From a bacterium (lineage in GTDB: Bacteria > Myxococcota_A > Bradymonadia > Bradymonadales > Bradymonadaceae), in contig JAUIBR010000002.1 in the NCBI GenBank assembly GCA_030427705.1, positions 92,631 through 156,630 on the forward strand: a stretch of DNA of 64,000 nucleotides. The letters are read 5' to 3'. A program made the translations under genes and the position numbers. The notes under the pieces are model-generated. The model did no database searches. It worked only from the letters and a program-made list of their open reading frames with translations, and was not told where the DNA came from. This document shows positions 9,987-49,876 of the stretch, piece by piece; the stretch's first letter is position 1, and every line of letters starts with the position of its first letter.

Positions 9987-10975
9987 GTGCATTTCAAAAA
10001 CTCGAAAAAGATTGCCACATTAGTTGTCGTGATTGCATTTTTGTTTGTTGGCCTGCAGCCAACTTGGGCCTGCTCAAACAACGAGAATACGGTTCGCCAA
10101 GCTGGACGCTTGACGCCTCTAACAATGCCATAATGGCGGCTGAGGGCCCGGTCGTCGTCGCGTTCAGACCACCAGACAACGGAGACCAACCAGCGCCGGA
10201 TGCGATGCTCGTTGTTAAGGACGCTGCTGGCAATGAATTGCCGGGGCAGCAAACCTCTGGTGTGGATCAGGAGCTCGTCCTCGTCTGGCAGCCTGACTCA
10301 ACTTTGCCGGAAGACATCGTCGTCACGGTCATGTGGGATGGGTACGAACGAGACCTCACCTTCAAAACCGTGGCCGGTTTGTGGCCTCCTGCCATTGACA
10401 TGCCACCGCCTGTGGTCACGAACTTCGAGAAGCCGGTTGGCTCCGACCCTGTATGCTGCGGCGGGGATGAGTGCGGAGAGTATTGTTATGATACAGTCTA
10501 CGAATACCAGAGCTACTTTCGAGTCCGCAGCAGGCAACCGGTTGACCTTGAGAGCGAACTATCGCGCACCTATTGGCGATTTGAACTGCGTTTTGATTCA
10601 GGTGGAGTGGTTGAGTTTCCGAGCGCCGACGGACCAAGTGAGGCCGCATGGCACGAACAACAAGCCGAAGAGATTTGCCTTCGATACGCCGCTGTCAGCC
10701 GCGTCGATGAAATGAACGTGGATGGTCCGCTCACTTGCATAAACGATGACGCAACGTTCATTGAAGACCTTCCAGGAGCGCCAAACTGCATCTCCCCCAA
10801 CGAGGTCATTCTGGTTGATGGCGCACGACGCCCTGTCGTCTACGCCGATGGCAGTGGGCCGCAGTCCGAAGGCTGCTCTATAACTCGGCAATCTCCAACC
10901 CCTGGAGGGATCTTAGTTGCCCTGTTCGCTTTGATTCTCGGTTGGCGCCGCCGAGGGCTATTAACCCTAAGTTAA
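9987..10975 (+). pseudogene. Frameshifted MYXO-CTERM-type secreted lipoprotein gene. The signal peptide is in frame 0 (9987-10133) and the mature domain is in frame 2 (10064-10975).
   Basis: Frame 0 encodes (M)HFKNSKKIATLVVVIAFLFVGLQPTWAC..., ending at the TAA at 10131-10133. Frame 2 is open from 9959 but has no start before the TTG at 10064 or the ATG at 10133, and it has no signal peptide. The C-terminus is GCS-hydrophobic-RRRG, the MYXO-CTERM pattern. Confidence 0.45.
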
Positions 10976-11226
10976 CGATGCAAAAATTCGTTAACACGCA
11001 TGAAAGTGATCACTTTCTTTCAGCTCGCCTGCAGTCTGCGTGGCAGAAAAAGTGCTTTTAACTGCAACAAGTTAGAACCTGCCGCATCGAAAATGCTCGA
11101 AATTTGGACGAACCCACAATGTAAGAAATGTGGGACAGTGTGGCACATCCGATCCTCTTTTGTTATCTTCCGGCCGCCACACATACACGAAGTAATTTCT
11201 TACTACCCGAGCGACACGAGGTTCCT

Positions 11227-12564
11227 GTGACAATACGGCACATTGGACGACTATTTAGTATTGGTTTTATCGCGGCCGGACTCACTGCCTGCGCTGACAC
11301 GACAGACAGCGGCCACGAAGAACAAGTAATCCAAGCCCGTTCTCAAGCAATCAGTGGTGGTTACGAAGACGAAGAAAGCACCTTCGCAGTTGGTTTGTAT
11401 GCAGCTCAAGGATATGCCGGCGGTATTTGCAGCGGTACGCTGATCGCGCCAAACCTTGTCCTGACCGCACAACACTGCGTCGCCCAGGTAACGTCACAAT
11501 ACGTTATCTGCGGTGAGTCTGGCTTCGGTTCGAAACTCAACCCACGCAATATCTTGGCAACGACGGCTCCACGACTGAGCCGCCGCGCCTACTTCCACCA
11601 AGGTCTAGAGGTCCACACCCCTCCAGGCGGGAATGATATGTGCGGGTTCGACATCGCCCTGATTATTCTGGACGAAAACGTTCCACCCGACGTTGCGACA
11701 CCAGCGATTCCTAGAATCGATATCGAGCCTGAGCCAGGCGAGGTGTACTCCGCAATCGGTTATGGACACGTAGGAAATGGATACGGTTCTGGCACTCGCC
11801 GCCGCATCGACAACCGCAGCGTGACTTGCTCGGCAGGCTCTTGCCCTGCCTATAGTTCGGTTCAAACGACCGAATTTTTGGGCACGGAAGGCACTTGCCA
11901 GGGCGACTCCGGCGGAACGGCACTCGACGCACAAGGCCGCGTCATCGGTGCCCTATCACGTGGACCAGACGGCTGCCGCGCTTCGGTCTACTCGGCCGTT
12001 TCTGGTTGGTCTGGATGGATGCGTGAGATTGGCGAAATGGCTGCCGAGAAAGGCCGCTACGACGCTCCGTTCTGGGTTACGCACGGCGTCAGCGAGATTC
12101 CAGCAGACGACCTCGACCTCGATGGCGTTCTGGTTGGAACCGACAACTGCCCCGACGTCGAAAACGCCGACCAGGCTGACCTCGACGGCGACGGCGAAGG
12201 CGACGCTTGCGAAACCGACGTCGATGGTGACGAGACCAACGACGACGACGACAACTGCGTACTGGATGCAAACGCTGACCAAGCTGACGCAGACGGTGAT
12301 GGCCAAGGCGACGCATGCGACACCGACGACGACGATGACGGAGTCGACGACGCAGACGACAACTGCCCACTTATCGACAACGGCGACCAAGCCGACAGTG
12401 ATGGTGACGGCGTTGGCGACGCTTGCCAGCCCCAAATCGACTTTGGCGGTGGCGAGAACGGTCAATCCGGCGGATGCTCGGCGACCAACGCCGACGCTTC
12501 GAGCAGCGCAACGATGTTTGGCCTGTTCCTCTTGGGTCTGATCGGAATCCGACGACGCAAATAG
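11227..12564 (+). CDS. Secreted trypsin-like (S1) serine protease with C-terminal thrombospondin type-3 repeats and a MYXO-CTERM-like anchor
   Basis: GTG at 11227 gives the lipoprotein signal TIRHIGRLFSIGFIAAGLTAC. The His motif is TAQHCV and the Ser motif is GTCQGDSGG. At least five DxDxDGxGDxCD repeats are present. The C-terminus is GGCS...FGLFLLGLIGIRRRK. Confidence 0.8.
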   Translation: MTIRHIGRLFSIGFIAAGLTACADTTDSGHEEQVIQARSQAISGGYEDEESTFAVGLYAAQGYAGGICSGTLIAPNLVLTAQHCVAQVTSQYVICGESGFGSKLNPRNILATTAPRLSRRAYFHQGLEVHTPPGGNDMCGFDIALIILDENVPPDVATPAIPRIDIEPEPGEVYSAIGYGHVGNGYGSGTRRRIDNRSVTCSAGSCPAYSSVQTTEFLGTEGTCQGDSGGTALDAQGRVIGALSRGPDGCRASVYSAVSGWSGWMREIGEMAAEKGRYDAPFWVTHGVSEIPADDLDLDGVLVGTDNCPDVENADQADLDGDGEGDACETDVDGDETNDDDDNCVLDANADQADADGDGQGDACDTDDDDDGVDDADDNCPLIDNGDQADSDGDGVGDACQPQIDFGGGENGQSGGCSATNADASSSATMFGLFLLGLIGIRRRK

Positions 12565-20033: not shown

Positions 20034-20759
20034 TTACTTGGACCGGGGCATGTACTGGGCGTCGAAGTTGCCCATCTTCATCACCTGCCCCTTTTTGATG
20101 CCGTGCTTTTGGACCCAGCCGGCTTTCAGCTCGATGACGTATCGAGCCGGACCTTCGGACTGCCGCCCTTGCAGGGTCAGTGGTTCGGCGCCCTCGATGA
20201 AGCTGACGACCTTTCCGTCATCGCCTACGAACACCATATCCAGAGGCATCAATGTGTTCTTCATCCAGAAGGACCGAATTCCCTCGGTCGGGTAGATGAA
20301 AATCATGCCCCAGTCGTCTTTCATTTCGCGTCGGAACATCAGACCGCGAGTTTGTTCGTAGTCTGGGATGGCGGTCTCCATGAAGAAACGCGAGGGCTTA
20401 GGACTCGTCTGAAACTCGACCCAAGGCGTGGATTCATCATGCTCGCCCGTGATGGCGGGTGGAGTCTTGCAGAAGCCATCGATACAACGCAGGAATCCAC
20501 GGCAGCCGCGGTCATCGCGGCAGGCCTTGGCCTCTTCGGTAGGCTTGGGCGAGTCCTTTTGCGCGGTCGGGTCCTTTTTAGGTTCGACCTTTGGCTCAAC
20601 CGGTTTGGGCTTAGGCGTCTCTTTCGGCTGTTCGGGAGCAACCGGCGGTTCCGGCTGTTTCTCTTGGTCCGTTTTGCAGGCCGTCAGGGCCAGCAGCAGC
20701 AGACTACTTACCGCGAAGCGTTTGATTAATGAGCGCTTGAAGGTCAGCGTCTTTTTCAT
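20034..20759 (-). CDS. DUF192-family lipoprotein with a Pro/Lys/Glu-rich linker and a 4-Cys motif
   Basis: Lipobox LALTACK. PEPK-type linker. CRDDRGCRGFLRCIDGFC. The C-terminal DUF192-like region is MIFIYPTEG ... WMKNTLMPLDMVF. Confidence 0.6.
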   Translation of the reverse strand: MKKTLTFKRSLIKRFAVSSLLLLALTACKTDQEKQPEPPVAPEQPKETPKPKPVEPKVEPKKDPTAQKDSPKPTEEAKACRDDRGCRGFLRCIDGFCKTPPAITGEHDESTPWVEFQTSPKPSRFFMETAIPDYEQTRGLMFRREMKDDWGMIFIYPTEGIRSFWMKNTLMPLDMVFVGDDGKVVSFIEGAEPLTLQGRQSEGPARYVIELKAGWVQKHGIKKGQVMKMGNFDAQYMPRSK

Positions 20760-23866: not shown

Positions 23867-26032
23867 CTACATATCGTCGACGGATGGGTCGAGCGATTTG
23901 CTTGATTCTCGCAGCTTTTTGAGCTTCTCAGATTCCTCTTCGGTGAGCTCCACATCGGCGGTCTGTTTTAGATCACCTTCGGCATTTGGATTGACCTTCG
24001 TGATCGCTGGCGCCTTCTTGAAAATGCCCGAAAGTGGCCGTTTCTTCAGCTCTTCCGCAGGGTCTGGCTCGGACTCAAGTTCCGCCTCCGACAACGCGTC
24101 GTTGACATCGAAGTCCTCCCAGTCATCGCCCAGGTCGATGTCGATGCTCTGATCCACATCCTCACCGGACACAACTTCGGGAATATCGGATTCTTCATCG
24201 TCTTCGATGTCATTGACTTCGACTTCAGAAATTTCACTCAGGATGGCGTCCAATGACTCGTCACCGGGCGCCAATTTGATGCCCAGGTCGTCGTCTGAGT
24301 CGTGTTCATCCTCGAACGCCTCGCTTTCTTCGACGACGAGGTCGTCAGATACAGGGATCGCTGGCTCGGAATAGTCAGACGGCGCCATCCCAATTTTGCT
24401 TGGAGGGTCTTCGCCTACGCGCGGCGCGTTTTCCCCAGCATCGAGCGTGTCGGACAATTCTTCGGACGCGGAAATCGCGTCGGGGGCGTCGATCTTCGGC
24501 GTCAGCTCCGCATCCGAGGCACCGTTTAATCCCGGTGGGGGCTCGTCTGCGGGCTCATCGTCGGGAATGTCAGGAATGTCCAGGAACGTAGCCTCGCGAT
24601 ACGGCTCCTCTTCCTTCTCAACTTCGCTTGGAAGGTCATAGCCAACTGGCTCGTCCGCTTGTGCAGGGTCAACCTTCGTGGGTTCATCCCCGCGTTTCAC
24701 CGGCTTCCACGGGTCGTCCTGTAAGCTGCGCATAATGTCGCTGTTTTCGGCGACCAATCCCAAGGCATTCTTGCCGGTCAGCACCTGATTCATCAGGTCG
24801 CGGTAACCCAACGCAAGGTCATTCATGGGCAGGGAGTTTGAGTCGGGCACATCAAAGAAGTGTCGCGCAATCGGCAAGAGCGCGATGTCGTCCAGCTGCT
24901 TTGCGGGGATCACGCCACGCTCACCAGTTTCAGGGTCTTCGACCGAACGTACGGCTCCCATGTCCGACAGTTCGGAGACTACTGAGCGGAGGAATACTTC
25001 GTTGTAGCCTAGCGTGCGAATGAGGTCGTTTTCAGGAATGCTTCCGTGCCCTTCCTTGAAGTGACGCGCGATCGGCGCCAGTACCTCGAGTCCAACCAAC
25101 GGGTTGTGGATGCTAGCCTTCTGTTTGGACGGAAGGCGTTGTTGCGCCGCATCGACCTCGACCAAGGTCCGTAAATGCTGCACGCAATAGGCGAGCTCAG
25201 CACCGATCATGACCAAGATCCACGAGACATAAATCCACAACAGCGAGATGGGGATGAGTCCAAGCGCGCCGTAGATGGTGCGATACGACTCGAAAATCAC
25301 CTCGTTAACGTAGAGGTTGAATCCCCATTGGGCGGCTTTGAACGCGTAGGCAGTGAACAGACCGCCGACGATCGCCGCGGGCCATCGCACCTTGGTGTGC
25401 GGCAAGAGCCAATGCATCAGGGTAAATAGCCCAAACACCAGCAAATACGGGACGAAGGTGTTCAGGAAGAACCCCGACTCAAGCCCCATGCGGCTCAGGA
25501 CCAATTGCGCTCGAGCGCTGAGGCCAACCGACAACGAGAGGAAGAGTGGACCGATCGTGACGACGAAATAGAAGTTCAGTAGCTTCTTGAAGAACTTGCG
25601 GTCCTTCGGCGCGCCCCAGACCACATTGAACGCCGACTCCATCTCCATGAACAGCAGGATTCCGACGACCAAGAAGATGACGGCGCTGACCGACCCGAGC
25701 GTCGCCGCACTGGTAGAGAACTCGGCGAGGTAGTCGGCGACTTCTGCCGCCACGGCGGGAAATGCCTGTTGTAGGAACGACTCAATTCCAGGGCTTTCTT
25801 CTTCAAACGTGCCAAACACGGCGAAGATAGAAGTCACCACGCTTAGCAGTGGGACAATCGAGATTGCTGTGGTGAAAGCAAGGCTAGCGCTCAGAATCGG
25901 GGCCCGGTCGCGGAAGAACTCACGGCCGGTGTAATAGACCGCAAACACCAACGCCAACGCATTGAACTGCCACGATTTGAGGGATTCCCAGTCGCCTTGT
26001 TTGAACCGAGCAAGGACGCCAGATTCAGCCAT
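23867..26032 (-). CDS. YihY/BrkB-family membrane protein with a long acidic C-terminal extension
   Basis: ATG at 26032 (MAESGVLARFK...). YihY core: ASLAFTTAISIVPLL and six TM helices. Two roughly 45-aa repeats start with L.PIARHF. The tail is a roughly 250-aa D/E-rich disordered region. Confidence 0.7.
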   Translation of the reverse strand: MAESGVLARFKQGDWESLKSWQFNALALVFAVYYTGREFFRDRAPILSASLAFTTAISIVPLLSVVTSIFAVFGTFEEESPGIESFLQQAFPAVAAEVADYLAEFSTSAATLGSVSAVIFLVVGILLFMEMESAFNVVWGAPKDRKFFKKLLNFYFVVTIGPLFLSLSVGLSARAQLVLSRMGLESGFFLNTFVPYLLVFGLFTLMHWLLPHTKVRWPAAIVGGLFTAYAFKAAQWGFNLYVNEVIFESYRTIYGALGLIPISLLWIYVSWILVMIGAELAYCVQHLRTLVEVDAAQQRLPSKQKASIHNPLVGLEVLAPIARHFKEGHGSIPENDLIRTLGYNEVFLRSVVSELSDMGAVRSVEDPETGERGVIPAKQLDDIALLPIARHFFDVPDSNSLPMNDLALGYRDLMNQVLTGKNALGLVAENSDIMRSLQDDPWKPVKRGDEPTKVDPAQADEPVGYDLPSEVEKEEEPYREATFLDIPDIPDDEPADEPPPGLNGASDAELTPKIDAPDAISASEELSDTLDAGENAPRVGEDPPSKIGMAPSDYSEPAIPVSDDLVVEESEAFEDEHDSDDDLGIKLAPGDESLDAILSEISEVEVNDIEDDEESDIPEVVSGEDVDQSIDIDLGDDWEDFDVNDALSEAELESEPDPAEELKKRPLSGIFKKAPAITKVNPNAEGDLKQTADVELTEEESEKLKKLRESSKSLDPSVDDM

Positions 26033-26270
26033 GAAATTTACTCGCAAGTTCCAACAATTAAGAACGAGCAGATTAGTGGATTGCCCCATCGTTGAACAGG
26101 GGAACAAATCCGACATGACGAACGTTCGACCCAATAGCGAAATGACGCACCCCCTTGAGATCGGCTGATCATCGGATCGCGAGCGAATTCAGCCGCTTTC
26201 TGGCATCAAAGTGCGACTTCGTGCATAATAAGGATCGACCGTTCTACGAACAAATTGCAATGGGTCCCGA

Positions 26271-29500: not shown

Positions 29501-30751
29501 ATGAAGCGAATTACGCTCATCTTAAAGGGGATGGCGATGGGGACCGCCGACGTCATCCCAGGCGTCAGCGGCGGCACGCTTGCCCTCATCCTGGGCATCT
29601 ACAAGGAGCTGGTAGACACGATCAAAGGTCTGTCGCCAACCATCTTGTTCCTCTGCCTCACCTGGCTGAAAAACGGCCGCACGTCTGAGGATTTCGAGAA
29701 GATCCGGGAAGAGTTCGACCGCCTGAATATCATGTTCCTGGTGCCGCTGGGCACAGGAATCGTCTCAGCTATCGTGGTGGGCAGCGTCATCATTCCATCG
29801 CTGATGGAGAGCTACCCAGTCGCGATGCGCGCGCTGTTCTTTGGCCTTATCGCCGCCAGCGTGTTTGTCCCATTTCGTATGATTAAGATCGGTAGCGCAC
29901 CTCAGGTCGCGACCGTTGCGCTGATGGCTGCCCTGGGCGGAGCCGCAGGATTCGTCATCTCCAATCCCGCGAACTCATTTAGCTCCAGTCGGACCTGGAC
30001 GACCGTAACGCCTGCCGAATCGATGCCCCTGAAAGACGTTCTTCGTCGTGGGCCAAGCTCATTGTCTGCGGAGCAAGTCTTCTGGGACGAGAAGAACACC
30101 GCACTGCGCGACGCCGTCGAGACCAATGACGCAGAAACGTTTGCAAAACTGGCCGTGCTCAAGGAACAGCACAAGGAACCGGCTTTCGACAAGAAGACGC
30201 TGAAGGCACGCAGCGAGCCGTATCAGACGGTCTCCGTGCCAAAAGGCACGCCGGTGGATATGCCACAACCCACTCTGTGGTTTGTCTTCTTAGCGGGCCT
30301 CATTGCCATCTGTGCGATGATCCTGCCGGGCATCAGCGGGTCGTATATTCTGCTGATCTTCGGGGTGTACTTCTTCGTGCTCAACTCGCTCAAGGGATTC
30401 CTGTCTCTGGCGGCGAGTGGGGAGTTTTCGACGGTGCACCTGGCATATGTTTCTGTGTTTTGCGCCGGATGTTTGATAGGCATTCTGAGCTTTGCGAGAC
30501 TGCTCAGCTACTTACTGGATAAGCACGCGCCTTTGACATTGGGCGTGCTTGTTGGCTTGATGGTTGGCTGTCTGCGCGGTATTTGGCCTTTCCGAGACGA
30601 GACGAGCGGTGTTGCGAAGAACATCATGCCCGCGCAGTTTGATGAAACGGTCATAAGCGCCATCGTCGCATGTTTGTTGGGCGCGGCGGTCGTCGCCGGG
30701 TTCACATGGTTAGGCCGCTCGCGGTCCGAAGGAGAAGCGGTAAATGCATAG
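29501..30751 (+). CDS. DUF368-family integral membrane protein with an inserted soluble loop
   Basis: GTADVIPGVSGGT is repeated as ILPGISGSY in the second half. Multi-TM. Confidence 0.65.
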   Translation: MKRITLILKGMAMGTADVIPGVSGGTLALILGIYKELVDTIKGLSPTILFLCLTWLKNGRTSEDFEKIREEFDRLNIMFLVPLGTGIVSAIVVGSVIIPSLMESYPVAMRALFFGLIAASVFVPFRMIKIGSAPQVATVALMAALGGAAGFVISNPANSFSSSRTWTTVTPAESMPLKDVLRRGPSSLSAEQVFWDEKNTALRDAVETNDAETFAKLAVLKEQHKEPAFDKKTLKARSEPYQTVSVPKGTPVDMPQPTLWFVFLAGLIAICAMILPGISGSYILLIFGVYFFVLNSLKGFLSLAASGEFSTVHLAYVSVFCAGCLIGILSFARLLSYLLDKHAPLTLGVLVGLMVGCLRGIWPFRDETSGVAKNIMPAQFDETVISAIVACLLGAAVVAGFTWLGRSRSEGEAVNA

Positions 30752-31637
30752 ATTTGCATACCTTGTTGTCGTCGCATCGTTGTTCGCCTCCTCGTTGGCT
30801 TTTGCTGACATGGGCGACATGGACATGAGCGTGAGCGACATGGACATGAGCGTCAGCGACATGGGCGCCAATGATATGGACATGAGCATCGGCGACATGG
30901 CCGACATGAGCGATATGGCACCCAGCGACATGGCAACAGACATGGTCGCGGACCTCGGAGACATGGCTCCTGACGCCGATATGGCCGACATGAACAACGG
31001 CCCATTTGTCTTTGAAGGCGTGATTGAACTGCGCGACCAACCCGATTGGAGTGGTTCCCTCATCGCGCTGACTAGCGACACGGATGCTTTCGCCGCCACT
31101 ACCGGCGCAAACGGCCTGTTTCGATTTGAGGCAGTTCCAGCTGGCACCTATCAGCTTGAGGTTAGCCAGACCGGATACACAAGCGTTTCCGAAGAACTCG
31201 TGATTTCACGGGAGTTAACGCGACGTTTTGTCCTCTACCCAGAAGGTTCCGCGACGGTCACCCTTCAAATTGAACTCGCTGAGGCACCTGCAGAAGGCGA
31301 CGGAGATACTGTCGAAATTTCCCTCACCTCGGAACGCGGTCAAGTGACCGAGTCTCTACCCCTCGCTGGCGGCACCGTTGTTGAGTGGAGTGGTGAGCTT
31401 GAGACGGGTTCCTGGACCGCAGATGTTGAGCTCGACGGCTTCTTGCCAGCTTCATACGCAATCACGGTTGAAGACGAAGACATCGACGTCAACATGACCC
31501 TGTTCAAGTTCCAGACAGGTGATGTGACGACGCGTGAAGAATGCGCCTGCCGCACTATCAATGCCGATGCGGGTGTGCCGTTCGTTGGCCTGCTCTTGCT
31601 TATCGGTGGAATGTTCGTCCGACGCCGGCGCGCCTAA
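30744..31637 (+). CDS. Secreted protein with an N-terminal (Asp-Met)n low-complexity repeat, a transthyretin/CarboxypepD_reg-like domain and a MYXO-CTERM-like anchor
   Basis: Signal peptide MHRFAYLVVVASLFASSLAFA. More than 20 DM dipeptides within about 60 aa. GLFRFEAVPAGTYQLEV. C-terminus CACRTINADAGVPFVGLLLLIGGMFVRRRRA. Confidence 0.6.
   Translation: MHRFAYLVVVASLFASSLAFADMGDMDMSVSDMDMSVSDMGANDMDMSIGDMADMSDMAPSDMATDMVADLGDMAPDADMADMNNGPFVFEGVIELRDQPDWSGSLIALTSDTDAFAATTGANGLFRFEAVPAGTYQLEVSQTGYTSVSEELVISRELTRRFVLYPEGSATVTLQIELAEAPAEGDGDTVEISLTSERGQVTESLPLAGGTVVEWSGELETGSWTADVELDGFLPASYAITVEDEDIDVNMTLFKFQTGDVTTREECACRTINADAGVPFVGLLLLIGGMFVRRRRA
30807..30992. repeat. Tandem GACATG hexamer-based repeat (coding, Asp-Met repeats)
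   Basis: gacatgggcgacatggacatgagcgtgagcgacatggacatg... read directly. Confidence 0.8.
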
Positions 31638-32371
31638 TGGGAATCTTCGACAACGTTAAATCGGCGCTGGGGATTGGACTTGGCTCGCTTGATGTTGTCG
31701 TCGCAGAACGCTCCAACCTTGGTGACAATCTTGAGGGAACGGTCACGTTTACAGCCAACAAGAACGTGAACGTGGTTCTTTTGGGCGTACGCCTGATCCA
31801 TCGATTCTACGCTGACCACATGCTCGACGAGATGATTCTGGACGAGCTCGCCCTGCTGGAGCGGGCTTCGTTTGCGGCGAGCGAGACGGTCACCCGTGAG
31901 TTCGAGCTAATCCTTCCGTTTGAAGCTGTGCCGACCGCTCCCGGCTTTAGCTGGCACGTGGAAGTGCTTCTGCAGCCGCAGAGTGGCGATGTCATCAGTA
32001 AGAAAGTGGAGGCTCGTGTTGAGATGTCGGTCGTGGGCGGAGCAATCCACCATGTCCTGCAGACGCAGTTCGGGTTCAAACCAACAGCCTGGGAAGCGAT
32101 TGAAGACGGCTTGGTCATTGGATACGAGCCGGACGCTTCTGTCCGACGACAGTTCAGCAGTCTACAGGTCCTTTATGATGAAGGTCCGGATGAGCTAGAG
32201 GTCGGTTTCACAACAAATTTCACGCCTGCGGCACTTCATCGACTCGCCGATAAGTACGATGAGGAGCAGAATATCGTTTGGTTGTCGCTTCGGAGATCCG
32301 AATTTGTTAACTCTGGAGCAGACTATCAGGCGATATACGCCGAACTTCGACCGCTTTTTGCGCTCGAGTAG
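31637..32371 (+). CDS. Spo0M-like (arrestin-fold) protein
   Basis: ATG at 31637 overlaps the upstream stop (TAATG). The N-terminus [22 protein letters not shown] resembles the Spo0M family N-terminus. Confidence 0.5.
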
Positions 32372-32385
32372 CACCGGAGACCAAG

Positions 32386-33732
32386 ATGGTCCGACTGAAA
32401 AGAGGATGGATCCTCATCGTGCTGGCCCTGTTCGTACTCTCGCTCGGCTGCGACGGAGCCGACTTCGATGAAGACGGAATCCCGGACACCAAAGACAATT
32501 GTCCACAAATAAAGAATCCCGACCAAAGTGATGCGGACGGCGATGACCACGGCGATGTTTGCGACATTTGTCCGAACGACAGCGACCCGCGTCAGGAAGA
32601 TGAGGACGATGACGGTGCCGGCGATGCCTGTGACAATTGCTTGGGTTTGGCAAACGCCGACCAGAGTGATGTCGACAGCGACGGGCTCGGCGATGCCTGC
32701 GACCCCGATATCGACAACGACGGACTTGAGAACGACGTAGACAACTGCCCATCGGATGCAAATCCAGGCCAAGAAGATGGCGATTCTGATGGCGCGGGTG
32801 ACGTATGTGATGTTTGCCCTGAGCTGTCCAATCCTGGTCAGGAAGACGCCGATGAAGATGGTCGCGGCGATATCTGCGATATCTGTCCGGACAACTTCGA
32901 TCCGAATCAGGAAGATACGGACGAAGACGGGCCAGGTGATGCGTGCGATGTCTGCCCGTTCATGGCGAACCCGGAGCAAGAGGACGAAGACTCGGATGGG
33001 CGAGGCGATATCTGCGACAACTGCCCCCAGACGCCAAACTCTGACCAACGCGATGAAGACCTCGATGGCGAAGGTGATGTGTGCGACTCCGACATCGACG
33101 GTGATGAAATCCCGAATGTGCGCGATAACTGCCCCGTCGTTGCCAACCCCAACCAGGGAGACAGCGATGGCGATGATGTGGGAACAGCCTGCGACAACTG
33201 TCCAACGGTCGTAAACACATCCCAGCTAGATAGCGATGTCGATGGGTTAGGCGACGAATGCGACAACTGCCCTGAGGCCGCCAATGCCAACCAGATGGAC
33301 GTGGACGGTGACGACGTGGGCGATGTCTGCGACCCATGTCCGATGATGGCGAACATGAGCTCGGTCGACACCGATGGCGATGGCGTGCCCGACGAATGCG
33401 ACAATTGCCCTCGCGTCCAAAGCGAAGACCAAACTGACACCGATGGCGATGGATTCGGCGACGCATGCGATAACTGCACATACGTCATGAACCCGCAGCA
33501 GCTGGACTCCGACAACGACATCATTGGCGACAGCTGCGACAACTGCCCGATGAACCCCAACACGGACCAAAAAGACACTGACCAGAACGGAATCGGTGAC
33601 GTCTGTGACTGCATGGGCCCCGATCAAGACGGTGACGGGCATCCGGATATGTGCGACAATTGCGCTTCCATCTTCAATCCGGACCAGCTGGACCAGAACC
33701 AGAACGGGATTGGCGATATTTGTGAGGTGTAG
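32386..33732 (+). CDS. Lipoprotein built almost entirely of thrombospondin type-3 (calcium-binding) repeats
   Basis: Lipobox LSLGCDG. More than 20 copies of D.D.DG.GD.CDNCP.. N(P/A)DQ.D. Confidence 0.75.
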
Positions 33733-33735
33733 TCG

Positions 33736-34185
33736 ATGGAAATAAGCGCTCGCACAATGTACGGACTCAGGGCGTTGGTCACGATGGCAGGTGCCCGGAC
33801 CAAAGACCCTATGAGCATCCAGACAATCGCCGAGCGCGAAGGCCTTCCATCGAAGTTCCTTGAAGGCATCATGGCCGACCTCAAACGTGGTGGCTTCGTT
33901 CGAAGCCGACGTGGTGCCAGTGGTGGATACCTCCTGAACAAGCCCGCCAGCGAAATCACAATCCTAGATATCATTCGTCATCTTGACGGACCGGTCGCCC
34001 CGGCCCGATTTGAGGACCGAACCTCTGGCGAAGACATGACGGAGCGGCAGAAGGCGTTCACGCCTGTATGGACCGAAGTTCGCGATGCACAGATTCGAGT
34101 GCTTGAGACCTACACAATTCAATCCATCGCCGACTCTGTCCCTGAGGACCCTCTTGGCGAATTCCACCCGATTTATCAGATCTGA
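33736..34185 (+). CDS. Rrf2-family transcriptional regulator (Cys-free, so cluster-less)
   Basis: N-terminal wHTH RTMYGLRALVTMA ... SIQTIAEREGLP ... ASGGYLL. There is no Cys in the whole protein. Confidence 0.78.
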   Translation: MEISARTMYGLRALVTMAGARTKDPMSIQTIAEREGLPSKFLEGIMADLKRGGFVRSRRGASGGYLLNKPASEITILDIIRHLDGPVAPARFEDRTSGEDMTERQKAFTPVWTEVRDAQIRVLETYTIQSIADSVPEDPLGEFHPIYQI

Positions 34186-34194
34186 GGCTGCGCG

Positions 34195-35046
34195 ATGACG
34201 ACACCTAAAATGGCCGTTCCCATTGTGGAAGCTACGTTTGGACTTGATGGTGGCGCGATGTTCGGCATCGTCCCTCGCCCGCTCTGGGAGCGTTCAAACC
34301 CGGCTGATGACAATAATCGGATCGACCTTGCGACGCGTTGTCTCTACGTCGAGTACGACGATGGCATGCGTGTCCTCGTAGACGTCGGAATCGGCACGAA
34401 ATGGTCCGAGAAAGAGCGTGGAATCTACAAGATCGACAATCAGGACTCAGGCCTTACCAAGGCGCTGAAAGAGCAGTTTAACTGCACGCCCGACGATATC
34501 GACCATGTCGTCCTGACCCATCTTCACTTTGATCACGCGGGCGGATTGAGCCGTTGGTCGGACGATACCGGTGCCTCGGAAGCCGTGTTCAACAACGCTC
34601 ATCACTGGGTACAGCGCCGCAACTGGGCTTGGGCTCACGCGCCGAGTGCTCGGGATGGTGGCAGTTACCGAAACGAAGATTTTGGTTTCCTGGCGGGATT
34701 GGATGCGCCGGATATGACGCATGTCGATGGAATCGACGAGATTCTGCCTGGAATCGAGGTCATCCCCTGCCACGGCCACACTTTTGGCATGCAGCTGGTC
34801 AAAGTGACGACTCCTGATGGGATCTACGTGCACTGTGCCGACTTGATCCCCACCGCGTCTCATCTGAAGGACGCGTATGTGATGGGATACGACCTGCAAC
34901 CGTTGGAAACGGTCAAAGAGAAACGTGCCCTCCTCTATGAAGCGATGCGCCACGATTGGATTCTGGTCTTCGAGCACGATCCAAACATGGCATGTGCCCG
35001 TGTCGAAGCCGACAAGCGTGGCCGCCCAGTCGCCGTCCCCGTCTAA
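34195..35046 (+). CDS. MBL-fold metallo-hydrolase
   Basis: HVVLTHLHFDHAGG (HxHxDH motif), plus downstream His and Asp ligands. Confidence 0.75.
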   Translation: MTTPKMAVPIVEATFGLDGGAMFGIVPRPLWERSNPADDNNRIDLATRCLYVEYDDGMRVLVDVGIGTKWSEKERGIYKIDNQDSGLTKALKEQFNCTPDDIDHVVLTHLHFDHAGGLSRWSDDTGASEAVFNNAHHWVQRRNWAWAHAPSARDGGSYRNEDFGFLAGLDAPDMTHVDGIDEILPGIEVIPCHGHTFGMQLVKVTTPDGIYVHCADLIPTASHLKDAYVMGYDLQPLETVKEKRALLYEAMRHDWILVFEHDPNMACARVEADKRGRPVAVPV

Positions 35047-35185: not shown

Positions 35186-37231
35186 ATGAAACGACTACTT
35201 TTTGGATTGGTTTGTGTCTCGTTGTTGGCTGCTTGTGGCGGCGATGACGACAGCAAGAACACGAACAACGACAACAACGCAAACAACACGAATAACGTTA
35301 ACAACTCGAATAACGTTAACAACACCAACAACGTCAACAACACGAACAACGTCAACAACACCAACAACGTGAACAACGTTGTCATCAACGCTGACGTGGT
35401 TGAGTCCGAGCCCAACGACGAGACGGACATCGCGACCGCCATCGAAGTTGGCCAGACGTTCGGCGGCGTTATCGCTCCGGGCACTGCAGACGAAGGTGAT
35501 GTGGACTTCTTCAAGGTCTCGCTCACCGGCGGAACCATCTTGGAAGTTGAGTTCACCGAAGTCTCGCCAGACGTCCAGCCTGTCGTCATCGTTCAGGACG
35601 AAGCCGGCATCGTGAATCGCCAGCTTGCTGCATCGAGCGCGATGAGCCGCCAGGTGTTCATTCCTGCTGACGGACAGTACGACCTCATCGTTATCGACGA
35701 GCGTCTCGGCAACGCTGCACACGGCGGCCCAACGTCGACCTACGTTCTGACGACATCGGTTGTCACGCCAACGCCAACCGCTCTGACGCTTGGTTCGCCA
35801 GTGACCGCCGATTGGAATGACAACAACGTTGATGTCTACAGCTTCACTTCGACCGCTGGAACGGCTGTCGACGCTGAGATCTTCGCGGTTCGCCCTCCTG
35901 CAAGTGGCGACCTCGACTCGGTCGTGTTGGTCTACAGCGCAACCAATGGCTACGTGACCGACAACGACGACATCGACTTCGACAACGGCAACAGCGATTC
36001 GGCAGTGGTCTTCCGCGCTGAAGCGAACGAAGAATACTGGATCGTCGTCGATGCGTACGAAACGGCAGAAAACGCGCCATATCAATTGGTGACGACCGAA
36101 ACTGACGACGCAATCTCGGCGCCACGCTCACTTGAGATTGGCGGCGCAGCGCTGACCGGTAACATCGACGCAGCAAACGGTGACGAGTTCGACACCGACT
36201 ACTTCACGATTGAAGTTCCAGCTGGCGCGACGACCCGCGTCGCGCTCACGGGCACTGGTGCCAACCTTCAGCCGGTCGTTACGATCGCAACGAACTCGTT
36301 CTTCGGCATCATTCCTTTCGCATCGGGCGCTGGCGTGAACGGAAACGCGGCTGTTGAATTCGCCAATGGCGGCGAAGATCCCGTCACGTACTTCGTGTTC
36401 GTCGACGACATCCGCAACGTTCCAGAAGACGAAAACGCAACGCCAGCAAACGTTGGTGGTGCTGACTTCGGTTACTCCCTCGCAGCAACGTCCGTCACCT
36501 GGACGCCAACCACGCAGACGCTTCCATTCTCTGGTTCTGGCTCGATTGCCGACGTCGGAAACTACGTCTGGTACGACGCCATGGTTCCAGCGAACTCGTT
36601 CATCATCGGTACGGTCACGACGACCAACCAAGACTTCGAAGCTCGCCTTGCGGTCATCAATGAGTTCGGCACCGCCGACCCATTCGAAAGCCCAATGGCG
36701 TTCCCACTGGCCGCAGCAACGACGCTCCAATTCGGCGTTCGTGACCGCGAGTACAAGGGTGGAACGGGTTACACGTTCGACGCTTCGCTTCAGGCTGTCG
36801 ACACCAGCGGCATCACCTTCGGCGCAGCTACCGAGACCGAACCAAACGACACGACCTCGACGGCAAATGCCGGCACGTTGCCAGCAGCCATCACCGGCGC
36901 AGTTGACGGCGTGGACGAGAACGACGTCAAGCCTGACTACACCTCGGTTACTCTGGCACAGGGCGACATCTTGGTCGCATACACCTCGACCTCAGGTGAC
37001 GAAATGGCTGATGCGGACACGATCGTGAAGATCTACGACTCGGCAGGAATGGTCGTCGCTGAGAATGATGACCACTTCGGTCAAGCGGACTCGTACTTCT
37101 CGGCAACCGCATACACGGCTACGACGGCTGGCACCTACTTCATCGCCGTTGAACCATACTGCGAAGGCGACACCAGCAACGGCTGTGGTGGAAATGGCGA
37201 CTACGTGTTGAACGCGTTCGTTGCTCCATAA
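35186..37231 (+). CDS. Lipoprotein with an Asn-rich linker and multiple pre-peptidase C-terminal (PPC)-like domains
   Basis: Lipobox LLAACGG. (NNTNNVNN)n linker. EPND.T..A..I..G....G.I....D.D.F PPC-like modules occur about four times. Confidence 0.6.
   Translation: MKRLLFGLVCVSLLAACGGDDDSKNTNNDNNANNTNNVNNSNNVNNTNNVNNTNNVNNTNNVNNVVINADVVESEPNDETDIATAIEVGQTFGGVIAPGTADEGDVDFFKVSLTGGTILEVEFTEVSPDVQPVVIVQDEAGIVNRQLAASSAMSRQVFIPADGQYDLIVIDERLGNAAHGGPTSTYVLTTSVVTPTPTALTLGSPVTADWNDNNVDVYSFTSTAGTAVDAEIFAVRPPASGDLDSVVLVYSATNGYVTDNDDIDFDNGNSDSAVVFRAEANEEYWIVVDAYETAENAPYQLVTTETDDAISAPRSLEIGGAALTGNIDAANGDEFDTDYFTIEVPAGATTRVALTGTGANLQPVVTIATNSFFGIIPFASGAGVNGNAAVEFANGGEDPVTYFVFVDDIRNVPEDENATPANVGGADFGYSLAATSVTWTPTTQTLPFSGSGSIADVGNYVWYDAMVPANSFIIGTVTTTNQDFEARLAVINEFGTADPFESPMAFPLAAATTLQFGVRDREYKGGTGYTFDASLQAVDTSGITFGAATETEPNDTTSTANAGTLPAAITGAVDGVDENDVKPDYTSVTLAQGDILVAYTSTSGDEMADADTIVKIYDSAGMVVAENDDHFGQADSYFSATAYTATTAGTYFIAVEPYCEGDTSNGCGGNGDYVLNAFVAP
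35255..35385. repeat. Tandem AAC-rich codon repeat (encodes the Asn-rich linker)
   Basis: aacacgaacaacgtcaacaacaccaacaacgtg... read directly. Confidence 0.8.
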
Positions 37232-40357: not shown

Positions 40358-41356
40358 TTGCTGAATTGGAATGACATTCAAGGTCAGGACCGCGCCAAGA
40401 AGGTGTTGGAGTCCTCGGTAGAATCGGGTCGCATCCACCATGCATACCTGATGGTCGGACCTCTTGGCGTTGGGAAACGCGCTACTGCTTTGGCGCTGGC
40501 GGCGGCACTAAACTGCACTGGAAACTCAGGAAGCGGATTTCAACCTGCATGCGGCCAGTGCCCGAGCTGCCGCAAAGTCGAGGGGATGCAACATCCCGAT
40601 ATCCGCGTGATTGAAGCGGAAGGTCGCTCAATCAAAATCGATCAGGTCCGCAGCGTTCAAAAAGCAGCGGCCACACGACCCTATGAGGGTGATTATCAGG
40701 TCATCATCATCGATGACTGTCACAAGATGACGGAAGAGGCGGCCAACGCGCTGTTGAAGACCCTCGAAGAGCCACCGGAATCGATGAAGCTCCTGTTGAT
40801 TTCGCACCAGCCAGCATCATTGCTCGACACGATTCGGTCCCGATGCCAGCTGCTTCGCTTCGCCCCGCTCTCATCGTCAATTGTGTCTTCGATTCTCTCG
40901 CACGAACTTTCAGATATGGCCCCCGACCAATTGCAGGTGGCCGCGGGGTACGGCGAGGGGTCTGTTGGACGAGCAAAAGACCTGGCCGAGTCCGGCCTGA
41001 TTGCGGAACGTGCTGAGTTGATTCGGACGATCCTGAATACCGATGCCAAGCACACCGCCACGCTTAGCACCGCCGCAGAAAGTCTCTCGAAAGACCGGTC
41101 GTTGTTTGGGACGAAGCTTGAAATCCTGAAGGTGTTCTTGCGAGATGTCGCACTGTTGCAGGCGGTTCCAGACCACCCTGAGCGCATTATCAATCAGGAC
41201 CTTTCCGAGCTCGCGCAGACTTGGGGTCGCGAAGTATCGGCCGATGATGTATTGAACCGCATCAATCTGGTCTCACGCGCCCAGCATCTGTTGGAGCGCA
41301 ATGTGAACCCGATGATGATTGCTGAAGACCTACTCATGGATCTCGCACGTAGATGA
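40358..41356 (+). CDS. holB: DNA polymerase III delta' subunit
   Basis: HAYLMVGPLGVGKRATA. Zinc module CGQCPSCRK. DDCHKM is a degenerate Walker B. The start is uncertain: TTG at 40358, or the track ORF start at 40259. Confidence 0.72.
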   Translation: MLNWNDIQGQDRAKKVLESSVESGRIHHAYLMVGPLGVGKRATALALAAALNCTGNSGSGFQPACGQCPSCRKVEGMQHPDIRVIEAEGRSIKIDQVRSVQKAAATRPYEGDYQVIIIDDCHKMTEEAANALLKTLEEPPESMKLLLISHQPASLLDTIRSRCQLLRFAPLSSSIVSSILSHELSDMAPDQLQVAAGYGEGSVGRAKDLAESGLIAERAELIRTILNTDAKHTATLSTAAESLSKDRSLFGTKLEILKVFLRDVALLQAVPDHPERIINQDLSELAQTWGREVSADDVLNRINLVSRAQHLLERNVNPMMIAEDLLMDLARR

Positions 41357-42660
41357 GCGCTGAACCACAAATCGAGCTGTCGGGCGCACCGTTTAAGGGC
41401 AAACGCCGACTCTATAACGTCGTACCTGTTCAACTTCGAACAAACTTCATCAAGGTGGAGTACGACGCGGGATCGCTCTTGGTGCATCCAGGCGACCAGC
41501 TGATCGTGGAGACCGACAAAGGTCCGGTGATTGGCAAGGTGACGGGCCAGGTTACCCGAAAGGTCCTCAAAGCAAACTCTCTGCAGCGCGTCGTCCGCAA
41601 AGCGTCCGAACAGGACATCGAACGCGCCGATAAGAACGAAGAGCTTGAAGTCGAGGCACATCACTTCGCGGTTCAACGGATTCGCGAACGAGCGCTGCCT
41701 ATGAAGCTCATTCGCGCCCAGTACATGCAAGATGGGTCGCGTATCGTCTTCTACTTTAGCGCGGACGGACGCATCGACTTCCGGGACCTCGTAAAGGACT
41801 TGGCGCACCGATTCCGTACCCGCATCGAGATGCACCAGATCGGCGTGCGAGACGGCACAAGGATGATTGGTGGGATCGGCCCGTGCGGTCGCGAGTTGTG
41901 CTGCAGCACGTTCCTTGAGAACTTCGCGCCTGTCTCGATTCGCATGGCGAAAGACCAGGGGCTGACGCTCAATCCAGCCAAAGTGTCCGGCATGTGTGGG
42001 CGATTGATGTGTTGTCTGGTTTATGAGCAACAGGTCTATCGACGGATGCGCAAGCGCCTTCCGCGAGCAGGTCAGCGCGTTGAGACCCCGGACGGTCTAG
42101 GCAAAGTCCTGGAGCTCGATGTCATTAACCAACGTGTCATCGTGGAACTCGAAGACACCAACCGTCGTACGTATGAGAATGCGGATGTGATGCTCCACGA
42201 CCCCAAACGTGGGCAGACGCCAAAGGCGGAAGAGCCGCCGTCTGACTACCTCTGGGACGATCTCGACCCGAAGAAGTCTGACGACGAATCGAAGGGCAAA
42301 AAGCGGCGCAGACGCCGGCGCGGTGGCAAATCCAAGGGCAGCGACGGTCAGAACCAGCAGTCGAACCAGACGCAGAGCTCGGACAACAACTTAGACAAGC
42401 CCAAGAAATCACGTAATCGGCGGCGGCGGCGCGGAGGCAAGGGATCCGGCAATAAGTCCGAGGGGCAGGGTCAGGGTCAGAACCAAAAGAACGACAACGC
42501 CAAGAAGGACTCCAAGCAGGGCGACAGCGCCAAGAAATCGGGGTCTCGACGACGGCGACGCGGCCGCGGCAAGGGCAAAGGCGGCTCAAACCAAGGCGGA
42601 TCCGATAACGGCGGGTCCGGCAAAGGCGGCTCAGATAAGGGCGGCTCAAAGAAAGAATAG
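41353..42660 (+). CDS. PSP1/RicT (YaaT)-family protein with a long basic Gly/Lys/Arg-rich C-terminal tail
   Basis: Conserved PSP1 C-terminal domain. Sits directly 3' of holB, which is the same synteny as Bacillus holB-yaaT. Tail is KKRRRRRRGGKSKGSDGQNQQ...GGSKKE. Confidence 0.72.
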   Translation: MSAEPQIELSGAPFKGKRRLYNVVPVQLRTNFIKVEYDAGSLLVHPGDQLIVETDKGPVIGKVTGQVTRKVLKANSLQRVVRKASEQDIERADKNEELEVEAHHFAVQRIRERALPMKLIRAQYMQDGSRIVFYFSADGRIDFRDLVKDLAHRFRTRIEMHQIGVRDGTRMIGGIGPCGRELCCSTFLENFAPVSIRMAKDQGLTLNPAKVSGMCGRLMCCLVYEQQVYRRMRKRLPRAGQRVETPDGLGKVLELDVINQRVIVELEDTNRRTYENADVMLHDPKRGQTPKAEEPPSDYLWDDLDPKKSDDESKGKKRRRRRRGGKSKGSDGQNQQSNQTQSSDNNLDKPKKSRNRRRRRGGKGSGNKSEGQGQGQNQKNDNAKKDSKQGDSAKKSGSRRRRRGRGKGKGGSNQGGSDNGGSGKGGSDKGGSKKE

Positions 42661-48850: not shown

Positions 48851-49876
48851 GTGTTTGAGATGCAAAAAGTCTGGTGGGGTCTCGCACTAATCGCATTTAT
48901 TACTGCGTGTACCACTGCAGCTCAAACGACCGAACCCACGCCGAAGCCTCAAATAGAGCAGCCGCCGCCACCTCCGAAGAAAGAGGTAGTGGTCGAAGAA
49001 CCCAAGGCGGCACCCGGTCCGTTCACCGTAGCGATCGTCGCTGATCTGAATTCTAGCTACGGCAGCTACGAGTACACTCCGGCTGTCCATGCAGCCGCGG
49101 CATATCTGGCGCAAAGCCGTCCTGATCTTGTGCTTAGCGCTGGTGACATGGTGGCGGGTCAGAAACGCGGTTTGGATTACCCCGGTATGTGGTCGGCGTT
49201 TCACCACGCCTTCACCGACCCAGTCCTGTCAGCTGGACTGACGTTGGCTGTGACCCCGGGCAATCATGACGGTGCAAAGCAAGAGAAGTTCGCCGTTGAA
49301 CGCCGAGAGTTCGTTAACCAGTGGCAGCCCCGAAAACCTGACTTGGAGTACGTTAGCGACGAGCACTATCCACTGATGTACGCATTCCAGAAGCGAGGCG
49401 TCTTATTCATATCGCTAGACGCCACTACCCCAGGAAAGCTGTCTCCGATGCAGCATGCTTGGCTTGAGAGCATCCTGTCCAAAAGCGACGAATTCAAATC
49501 GACGATTGTCTACGGTCATGTCCCCCTGGTGCAGTTCGCAGCTGGGCGAGGACGCGAGGTGCTGGGCGATGCGAAGCTTCGTGAAACTCTGCACAGGTAC
49601 AAGGTAGATGCCTATATCACCGGCCATCATCACGCGTACTACCCGGCTCGTGATGAATCGCTCTTGATGTTGGGGGCGCCGTGTCTTGGCACAGGACCAC
49701 GGCCGCTCACCGGACACACGCAGAAGAGCCAGAAAGGTCTACTTTGGCTCACGTTCGCTGAAGATGGCTCGTTTCAGTACGAAGCTCGGATCGCACCCGA
49801 TTTCACATCGACTATCGCCGTCGATGAACTCCCCGAAAAGTTGAAGACAAAGGCAGGCACGGTCGTTCGCGACTAG
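48851..49876 (+). CDS. Lipoprotein metallophosphoesterase (calcineurin-like)
   Basis: Lipobox FITACT. Pro-rich linker. GD (SAGDMVAG), GNHD and GHHHAY motifs. Confidence 0.75.
   Translation: MFEMQKVWWGLALIAFITACTTAAQTTEPTPKPQIEQPPPPPKKEVVVEEPKAAPGPFTVAIVADLNSSYGSYEYTPAVHAAAAYLAQSRPDLVLSAGDMVAGQKRGLDYPGMWSAFHHAFTDPVLSAGLTLAVTPGNHDGAKQEKFAVERREFVNQWQPRKPDLEYVSDEHYPLMYAFQKRGVLFISLDATTPGKLSPMQHAWLESILSKSDEFKSTIVYGHVPLVQFAAGRGREVLGDAKLRETLHRYKVDAYITGHHHAYYPARDESLLMLGAPCLGTGPRPLTGHTQKSQKGLLWLTFAEDGSFQYEARIAPDFTSTIAVDELPEKLKTKAGTVVRD

Follow-up and report, generated by a model that had tools for sequence, protein, structure and literature searches.

We analysed a 64,000-nucleotide stretch of DNA from a bacterium of the family Bradymonadaceae (Myxococcota_A; Bradymonadia; Bradymonadales), which spans positions 92,631 to 156,630 of the forward strand of contig JAUIBR010000002.1 in the GenBank assembly GCA_030427705.1. 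The whole stretch is called the window here, and all coordinates are counted from its first nucleotide. At 30807-30992 the window carries a dense cluster of the hexamer GACATG, which an initial annotation made from the sequence read as a tandem repeat encoding an Asp-Met (DM) dipeptide array and as a candidate metal-binding segment. We find that the DM array is coding and forms the N-terminal tail, strongly acidic and predicted to be disordered, of a conserved protein that has two folded domains and a MYXO-CTERM-type C-terminus.

The DM gene and its product

The gene and its parts are as follows.

30744..31637, plus strand: gene for a 297-aa secreted protein with a signal peptide, the DM tail, two beta-sandwiches and a MYXO-CTERM-type tail (open reading frame, ORF; identical protein)
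30744..30806, plus strand: signal peptide, aa 1-21 (MHRFAYLVVVASLFASSLAFA), predicted cleavage after AFA and before D22 (inspection)
30807..30992, plus strand: Asp-Met-rich acidic low-complexity region, aa 22-83, 16 DM (hexamer counts, composition, AlphaFold2 (AF2) model)
30814..30864, plus strand: recent tandem duplication within the DM array, 7-aa unit SDMDMSV (Tandem Repeats Finder, 21 bp x2.4)
31005..31235, plus strand: first prealbumin-like beta-sandwich (CarboxypepD_reg), aa 88-164 (PF13620; AF2 predicted local distance difference test (pLDDT) 74-98)
31248..31502, plus strand: second beta-sandwich domain, aa 169-253 (AF2 strands, pLDDT 90-97; collinear in 13/13 relatives)
31542..31634, plus strand: MYXO-CTERM-type sorting tail, aa 267-297, with C-A-C, a hydrophobic helix and RRRR (TIGR03901; AF2)

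The plus strand, chosen as coding in the initial annotation, is supported by the signal peptide, the PF13620 domain, the C-terminal tail and an identical protein present in NCBI and Logan (P0001), whose protein cluster has a single member. The sequence GGAG lies 9 nt 5′ of the ATG. The gene starts within the end of the upstream gene, with 8 nt shared, and an 8-nt overlap is likewise present at an ortholog locus, L037.

By inspection, the N-terminus MHRFAYLVVVASLFASSLAFA-D resembles a Sec signal peptide with an AxA cleavage site. All relatives described below have an equivalent hydrophobic N-terminus that ends in an AxA-like motif. The signal peptide had been annotated directly before the array, and the hydrophobic core and the AFA before D22 support this placement.

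Two folded domains follow the array. The first matches PF13620 with E=1.3e-11 and 45.1 bits, above the gathering threshold of 32.3. In the AF2 model from a 13-sequence alignment, residues 88-255 form two beta-sandwiches with pLDDT >90, and the single-sequence model is concordant. The transthyretin-like beta-sandwich of the initial annotation is supported by both the profile and the model.

Foldseek against the PDB matches the protein to the tandem CnaB/prealbumin-like domains of Gram-positive pilins and adhesins. The matches are B. anthracis TIE (the best, E 3e-11), GBS52, SdrD and SpaA, plus an archaeal S-layer protein and teneurin. The SdrD structure among them is a B domain, and Pfam gives a weak PF17210 SdrD_B match in the same protein. 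No named NCBIfam family was matched by the protein family, which combines the acidic tail with two CarboxypepD_reg-like domains.

The C-terminus reads ...EEC267-A-C269-R..., then VPFVGLLLLIGGMFV-RRRRA, and AF2 places a helix at residues 280-296. The TIGR03901 profile scores the window protein at 18.4 bits vs a curated cut-off of 20, and it matches 8 of the 13 relatives at E<=0.1, the best at 3.2e-7. C267 is invariant in the 13-sequence alignment (A1). The MYXO-CTERM signature has an invariant Cys and often a second, non-adjacent Cys (Haft 2023, bioRxiv 10.1101/2023.06.07.544157). By its sequence, the MYXO-CTERM membership of the window protein is likely but formally borderline, and the anchor initially annotated there is upheld at that strength.

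The array in DNA and in protein

In the frame of the ORF, 30807-30992 on the plus strand translates to DMGDMDMSVSDMDMSVSDMGANDMDMSIGDMADMSDMAPSDMATDMVADLGDMAPDADMADM, as the initial annotation had it. Its figure of about 30 near-perfect GACATG hexamers is an overcount, because we count 13 exact GACATG and 3 GATATG, all in one reading frame. These 16 hexamers encode 16 DM dipeptides in 62 residues (aa 22-83) and cover 96 of the 186 nt. They are interspersed with 1-5 other codons and adjoin each other in pairs at most, and no perfect tandem tract is longer than 12 bp.

Chance falls far short of explaining the clustering: the plus strand has 13 GACATG in these 186 bp, where the frequency in the remainder of the window predicts 0.047 (Poisson P ~8e-28). 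Met makes up 24% of the DM region vs 2.2% in ten other window genes, an 11-fold enrichment. No other ORF of the window reaches even 4 DM per 60 residues. Tandem Repeats Finder reports a 21-bp unit repeated 2.4 times at 30814-30864 with 96% matches, a looser 36-bp unit repeated 2.6 times and two weak short-period rows.

The low-complexity tail continues beyond aa 83, up to aa 87 (nt 31004). Over aa 22-87, Asp is 27% and Met 24%, K, R, H and C are all absent and the net charge is -18. As pattern matches only, 3 MxM and 4 MxxM spacings occur in it. The AF2 model gives the DM region a pLDDT of 45-51 and no secondary structure.

Relatives and what the tail conserves

A word-indexed search with the full protein found nothing besides the protein itself and a single distant domain relative, and a metagenome scan with it gave no relatives and no same-species contig. 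The word-indexed search with the 65-aa DM segment gave 5 candidates, none of them scored, and missed its own protein. This is no evidence for the rarity of DM arrays because the low-complexity bias correction makes such a search uninformative. The literature on Asp-Met repeats or on low-complexity tails in Bradymonadales yielded nothing specific.

The family emerged from an exhaustive HMMER search, which gave 13 full-length, collinear relatives with 25-36% identity. All 13 share the architecture of a signal peptide, an acidic low-complexity region, two beta-sandwiches and a Cys-x-Cys/hydrophobic/Arg tail. In these and the window protein, 14 proteins in total, the tail was delimited from the signal-peptide cleavage site to the first beta-strand. 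The values below are for these 14 tails, and the three series are in the same order.

Length: 51-148 aa
Asp (%): 27, 31, 27, 29, 27, 24, 23, 25, 22, 25, 24, 24, 23, 26 (range 22-31%)
Met (%): 24, 20, 10, 10, 10, 7, 14, 3, 0, 12, 6, 1, 2, 1
DM dipeptides: 16, 14, 4, 7, 6, 4, 6, 1, 0, 3, 1, 0, 0, 0
K+R, His, Cys: K+R 0-4 residues; His 0-1; Cys 0
Net charge: -13 to -39

All members of the family share the tail's acidity and its place in the protein, whereas the methionines are lineage-specific. One Asp per 2-4 residues is a periodicity conserved in the whole family. Neither MxM nor MxxM is present in the tails of 9 of the 13 relatives, and 4 of the 13 lack any DM. In the low-Met tails, Asp is followed by Ala, Gly, Thr or Val, giving DAG, DTG, DVG and DQG motifs, and the codons in place of Met are mostly one substitution from ATG.

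The initial annotation had held that orthologs without the array would point to a recent expansion with no conserved function. The outcome is divided, with the acidic low-complexity region kept in 13/13 and the DM array mostly lacking (Met 0-24%). One syntenic ortholog, the P0019 protein of L037, has a DM array of its own, DMDDMGIEDMDDMGIEDMEDMTQPEDMDDMEDMTQPEDMDDMGIEDM, and is the second DM-rich protein. Its tandem duplications (36 bp x2.2 with 97% matches, and 24 bp x3.5) are unrelated to the 21-bp duplication of the window. Since the duplications at the two loci are independent, the tail region turns over quickly by in-frame duplication.

On a neighbour-joining (NJ) tree of the family, the Met content is graded from 20-24% in the pair of the window and L037 through 7-14% in a middle group to 0-6% in a distal group. 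The two loci with the lowest GC content have the highest tail Met. Tail Ala+Gly rises with GC (rho 0.68, p 0.04, n=9).

Gene neighbourhood

The two neighbours of the DM gene are as follows.

29501..30751, plus strand: upstream neighbour, DUF368/VCA0040-like (undecaprenyl-phosphate translocase-like) membrane protein (PF04018, E=3e-64)
32386..33732, plus strand: downstream neighbour, thrombospondin type-3 (TSP3) repeat lipoprotein, MtsC-like (PF02412, E=9.5e-69; NF047638 MtsC)

With DUF368 as the probe, the nearest genomes are the uncultured Bradymonadales L001 (60% identity) and L002 (55%). In L001, the gene directly after DUF368 encodes a collinear ortholog of the DM protein (29% identity, E 3e-27). 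DUF368 is the syntenic neighbour in L001, L037, L041 and L043, and a protein of about 450 aa follows the ortholog in these four and in L040. The order of DUF368, the DM gene, a Spo0M-like gene that may be missing, a TSP3 protein of about 450 aa and Rrf2, with a metallo-beta-lactamase (MBL) gene nearby, is found in the window, L001, L037, L041 and L043. L040 has the same order in part, and there the gene upstream of the ortholog is not identified.

In Bradymonadales the cluster (29501-35046 in the window) also has SLT/TPR, an Rrf2 regulator and an MBL-fold protein, and only the Spo0M-like gene is optional in it. The cluster is variable. In L002 (2836-4848), DUF368 is directly followed by the Spo0M-like gene, without the acidic-tail protein. 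In L001 (11251-13571), the acidic-tail protein is present and the Spo0M-like gene is absent.

The TSP3 lipoprotein scores 356.3 bits against NF047638, the equivalog for the cell-cell cohesion protein MtsC of M. xanthus, vs a cut-off of 350. Its C-terminus reads ...GIGDICEV and has no MYXO-CTERM tail, so the MtsC match is probably repeat-driven. Any tie of the cluster to the M. xanthus mts locus would come solely from this NCBIfam match of the neighbour.

The genes scanned for families lie at about 14-44.5 kb of the window, a span of roughly 30 kb. They encode SLT/TPR, DUF368, TSP3, Rrf2, MBL and PPC proteins, a 5′-nucleotidase, a DegP-like protease and others. Among these scanned genes there is no cop, cus, sil or pco gene or any other metal-resistance family.

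Other low-complexity regions and sorting tails in the window

Other secreted proteins and lipoproteins of the window have different low-complexity stretches just after the signal peptide. Pro/Lys-rich stretches follow the signal peptides at 20034-20759 and 48851-49876. The ORF 35186..37231 encodes a lipoprotein with an LLAAC lipobox, a C-terminal PPC domain and an (NNVNNT)n linker at 35264-35379 on the plus strand. The linker has an 18-bp unit repeated 6.4 times (a 9-bp unit 12.9 times) and a 30-aa entropy of 1.35 bits, and is much more regular than the DM array. The L001 homologue of this lipoprotein has a NNTNNATNN version of the linker.

Two more proteins, encoded at 10064-10975 and 11128-12564 on the plus strand, have Cys/hydrophobic/Arg C-terminal tails. 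The latter carries TSP3-like repeats and a MYXO-CTERM match above the cut-off (23.2 bits vs 20). Counting the DM protein, this brings the candidate myxosortase substrates of the window to at least three.

Low complexity is found also at C-termini. A PSP1-domain protein at 41353-42660 (plus strand) has a Gly/Ser/Lys-rich low-complexity tail (GRGKGKGGSNQGGSDNGGSGKGGSDKGGSKKE). A BrkB/YihY-family membrane protein at 23867-26134 (minus strand) is unusually long at 755 aa with a Pfam match to residues 75-320 only, and its C-terminal extension is highly acidic, e.g. DIEDDEESDIPEVVSGEDVDQSIDIDLGDD.

Discussion

We give a probability of roughly 60% to the reading that a surface protein has here a conserved polyanionic disordered tail which evolves fast, that the DM array is the Met-rich, lineage-specific form of it, and that the tail acts as a brush or interacts with hard cations. 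Our confidence is high in the anatomy and the conservation pattern and moderate in the mechanism. The Asp content and the position hold throughout the family, and the Met content does not.

The protein would be exported by Sec and its signal peptide then cleaved between AFA and D. In M. xanthus, MYXO-CTERM proteins are cut by myxosortase and sorted to the cell surface, as shown for TraA (PMC11980579). MYXO-CTERM proteins are also abundant in Bradymonadales, which have MrtP as the cognate myxosortase (bioRxiv 10.1101/2023.06.07.544157). The Cys-x-Cys/helix/RRRR C-terminus may be processed by the same route. The two stacked prealbumin-like beta-sandwiches would make a short stalk on the outer membrane, with the tail of about 65 residues as its distal free end at the cell surface.

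Selection would maintain a polyanionic, unstructured extension without basic residues. The residue after Asp would be free to drift among Ala, Gly, Thr, Val and Met, and is mostly Met in the window lineage and one other. The array grows and turns over by in-frame tandem duplication of 21-36-bp units. Given this turnover, the most likely view of the DM richness is that a generic acidic tail has taken on a composition specific to the lineage. The tail would most probably serve as a hydrated, negatively charged brush, interact with hard cations (Ca2+/Mg2+) at the surface, or do both, and a Ca2+/Mg2+ role would fit its conserved partnership with the Ca-binding TSP3 (MtsC-like) lipoprotein.

Several points weigh against this reading. 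The window protein is just under the MYXO-CTERM cut-off, and no MrtP/NF040674 myxosortase match was found among those window proteins that were scanned with NCBIfam, which are not every ORF. The putative tail function is read from composition and conservation alone, and the retention of the tail on the mature protein would be an assumption. Tail Met falls with GC only weakly (rho -0.43 to -0.47, p ~0.2, n=9). The trend is in the expected direction, and GC content is kept as a partial, unproven driver of the Met enrichment.

The phylogeny adds to these points. The NJ tree of the family and the tree of DUF368, which carry no support values, disagree on whether the DM-rich lineages are sisters. 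The two syntenic orthologs are about 33% identical, with DUF368 neighbours of 57-59%, and both keep 20-24% Met. As Met has a single codon, this exceeds the expectation of simple drift. The Met retention in the sub-lineage of the window and L037 could hence reflect selection for Met.

Possible metal binding by the tail

The initial annotation proposed a cell-surface metal sponge. In a soft-metal version of it, the Met thioethers, with the Asp carboxylates assisting, would bind Cu(I) or Ag(I) on the cell surface and capture or buffer them. We consider this unlikely as the role of the tail, and the evidence falls on both sides. Soft-metal binding is plausible chemically, given 16 Met in 62 residues and the MxM and MxxM spacings of aa 22-87, but neither conservation nor gene context supports it.

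MxM and MxxM are the spacings of the Mets motifs of Ctr1, and the labile Cu site of CueO uses Met and Asp ligands. Both count in favour of the sponge. Met-rich segments are known also in multicopper oxidases of the CueO/CopA/PcoA type. The P0019 ortholog of L037 retains the DM richness despite its distance and the independent duplications, and a metagenome pattern scan finds DMxDMxDM in three copper-handling proteins (L067, L081 and L094). A disordered periplasmic metal sponge has a precedent in SilE (PMC5008109).

The conservation pattern argues against the sponge, as the family Met varies over 0-24%, 9 of the 13 relatives have neither spacing and 4 have no DM. The clustered spacings of Ctr1-type Mets motifs are thus present in the window tail and unconserved. 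Most of the 80 DMxDMxDM matches scanned in the metagenomes are unrelated microsatellite-like or acidic stretches. The gene context is no better, since the scanned region holds no metal-resistance genes and the conserved neighbours are of the envelope or adhesion type.

Membership in known metal-binding families was also tried and rejected. CopC, PcoC and CusF were cited by the initial annotation, and the protein has no match to them or to other metal-binding families in Pfam, nor to the three in NCBIfam, at E<=1. SilE binding relies on conserved MxxH/HxxM motifs that fold into helices, and SilE is encoded within a sil/pco efflux operon (PMC5008109). Like SilE/PcoE, the DM tail is secreted and intrinsically disordered, contains Met and has been proposed to take up soft metals at several sites, but it has neither His nor Cys in aa 22-87, no detected similarity and no sil, pco or cus neighbours in the scanned range, and its Met is unconserved. 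As the defining features of these classes are absent, the tail falls outside SilE/PcoE, CopC/PcoC/CusF and the contingency loci discussed below.

The inserts of CueO/CopA/PcoA and the Met-rich segments of Ctr1 share the MxM/MxxM spacings with the DM tail and have Asp beside Met, for example the multicopper oxidase of L067 with DMPDMPDMPDM. They adjoin a copper-handling catalytic or transport domain, whereas the DM tail adjoins generic stalk-like beta-sandwiches.

The pattern scan itself gave a varied set. The L067 insert with DMx repeats reads ...ADMPDMPDMPDMAGMPGM..., L081 is a P-type ATPase whose H/M/D-rich N-terminus carries DMx repeats and L094 is a DUF305 protein with DMx repeats. L096 is an unannotated lipoprotein that is DM-rich at both ends, and L121 an unannotated secreted protein with a (DMK)n C-terminus. 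Many other matches are non-coding-looking microsatellites of (DMP)n, (DMT)n and (DML)n.

In a more specific form, a low-GC sub-lineage of Bradymonadales would have remodelled the tail into a His- and Cys-free Asp/Met module that binds Cu(I)/Ag(I) or senses copper, is displayed by MYXO-CTERM and has been selected in two lineages. We hold this to be a long shot. If true, it would be a new minimal, His-free extracellular soft-metal sponge, displayed at the surface and kept despite the rapid repeat turnover.

Other explanations

Another possibility is an export or maturation pro-region. Until type II secretion and myxosortase processing, the acidic segment would keep the periplasmic protein unfolded, soluble or non-adhesive, and it would then be clipped. 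The segment is disordered in the AF2 model, and in 14/14 members it immediately follows the signal peptide, as the most N-terminal part of the protein. MYXO-CTERM proteins reach the surface via the type II secretion system (bioRxiv 10.1101/2023.06.07.544157). In the alignment A1, no conserved cleavage motif is visible where the tail meets the first strand, and no feature of the sequence calls for a pro-region. We find it improbable.

A redox-active tail, in which Met would serve as a sacrificial oxidant sink or an oxidation-sensitive switch, is very improbable and purely speculative. The 11-fold Met enrichment would suit it, and two papers on eukaryotes describe oxidation-regulated Met-rich low-complexity domains (PMC7682574, PMC8394241). 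Against it, Met is unconserved across the family and no msr genes lie nearby among the genes scanned.

The weakest alternatives, a contingency locus or an antisense gene for a His-rich peptide, are hardly credible. The DNA is repetitive, the tail length varies widely among the relatives and there are recent duplications, which led the initial annotation to expect a slipped-strand, phase-variable locus. The units of 6, 21 and 36 bp are all in frame within the coding sequence and multiples of 3, so slippage is unable to switch the gene off, and no perfect tract exceeds 12 bp. The array data show evolutionary length change, not on/off switching.

On the antisense side, the initial annotation had also read an open (HV)n poly-His frame. 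The frame is indeed open over 112 codons (ORF 30702..31040), but it is not poly-His, with 26% His as HV dipeptides, and is a mirror artefact of (GAC ATG)n. Its His content tracks the sense Met content across the orthologs, stops interrupt it in the orthologous regions of L001, L038 and L043 and it crosses the junction of two sense genes. We reject both the contingency locus and the antisense gene.

Relation to known surface proteins

The polyanionic surface tail that we prefer can be compared with two known systems. The Sdr/Clf proteins of staphylococci have SD dipeptide repeats, CnaB/prealbumin-like B domains, a C-terminal sorting signal and imperfect in-frame DNA repeats. Their Ser-Asp repeat region seems the nearest analogue in kind. 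Both have an Asp-X low-complexity region on a sorted surface protein with prealbumin/CnaB-like domains and a C-terminal sorting signal, and in both the imperfect short in-frame DNA repeats change length by duplication.

The differences are also clear. X is Met here and Ser there, and the mere 16 dipeptides here are broken up by other residues, with runs of two at most. The DM tail is at the distal N-terminus, whereas the SD region is placed after the B domains and before the anchor. The host here is Gram-negative with MYXO-CTERM and no evident glycosyltransferase context, and the staphylococcal signal is LPXTG. With no long uninterrupted Asp-X run between B domains and anchor, the tail is not placed in the Sdr/Clf-type repeat regions.

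The second system is the MYXO-CTERM surface proteins of Myxococcota and Bradymonadales, with TraA and MtsC as examples. The window protein is like them in its signal peptide, two non-adjacent Cys, transmembrane helix and Arg cluster, and Bradymonadales use MrtP. It is unlike them in scoring 18.4 against the cut-off of 20 and in having no named NCBIfam family.

Significance

The result is a modest one. An eye-catching repeat is a compositional variant of an acidic disordered tail that evolves fast, and the earlier claims on the hexamer count, the phase variation and the antisense frame are corrected. Asp-Met is a new compositional variant of the acidic, repeat-derived disordered region of sorted bacterial surface proteins. 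If the Met-rich tails bind Cu(I)/Ag(I), they would be a new His-free surface metal-binding motif.

The analysis defines an uncharacterised, syntenically conserved surface-protein family of Bradymonadales, with an acidic tail, two prealbumin-like domains and MYXO-CTERM. It offers a natural series for what selection sees in disordered regions, as Asp is pinned at 22-31% and its partner drifts from Ala/Gly/Thr to Met. The constant pairing of the family with a membrane protein of the DUF368 type and with a TSP3/MtsC-like lipoprotein suggests a module for the cell envelope or for cohesion in these predatory bacteria.

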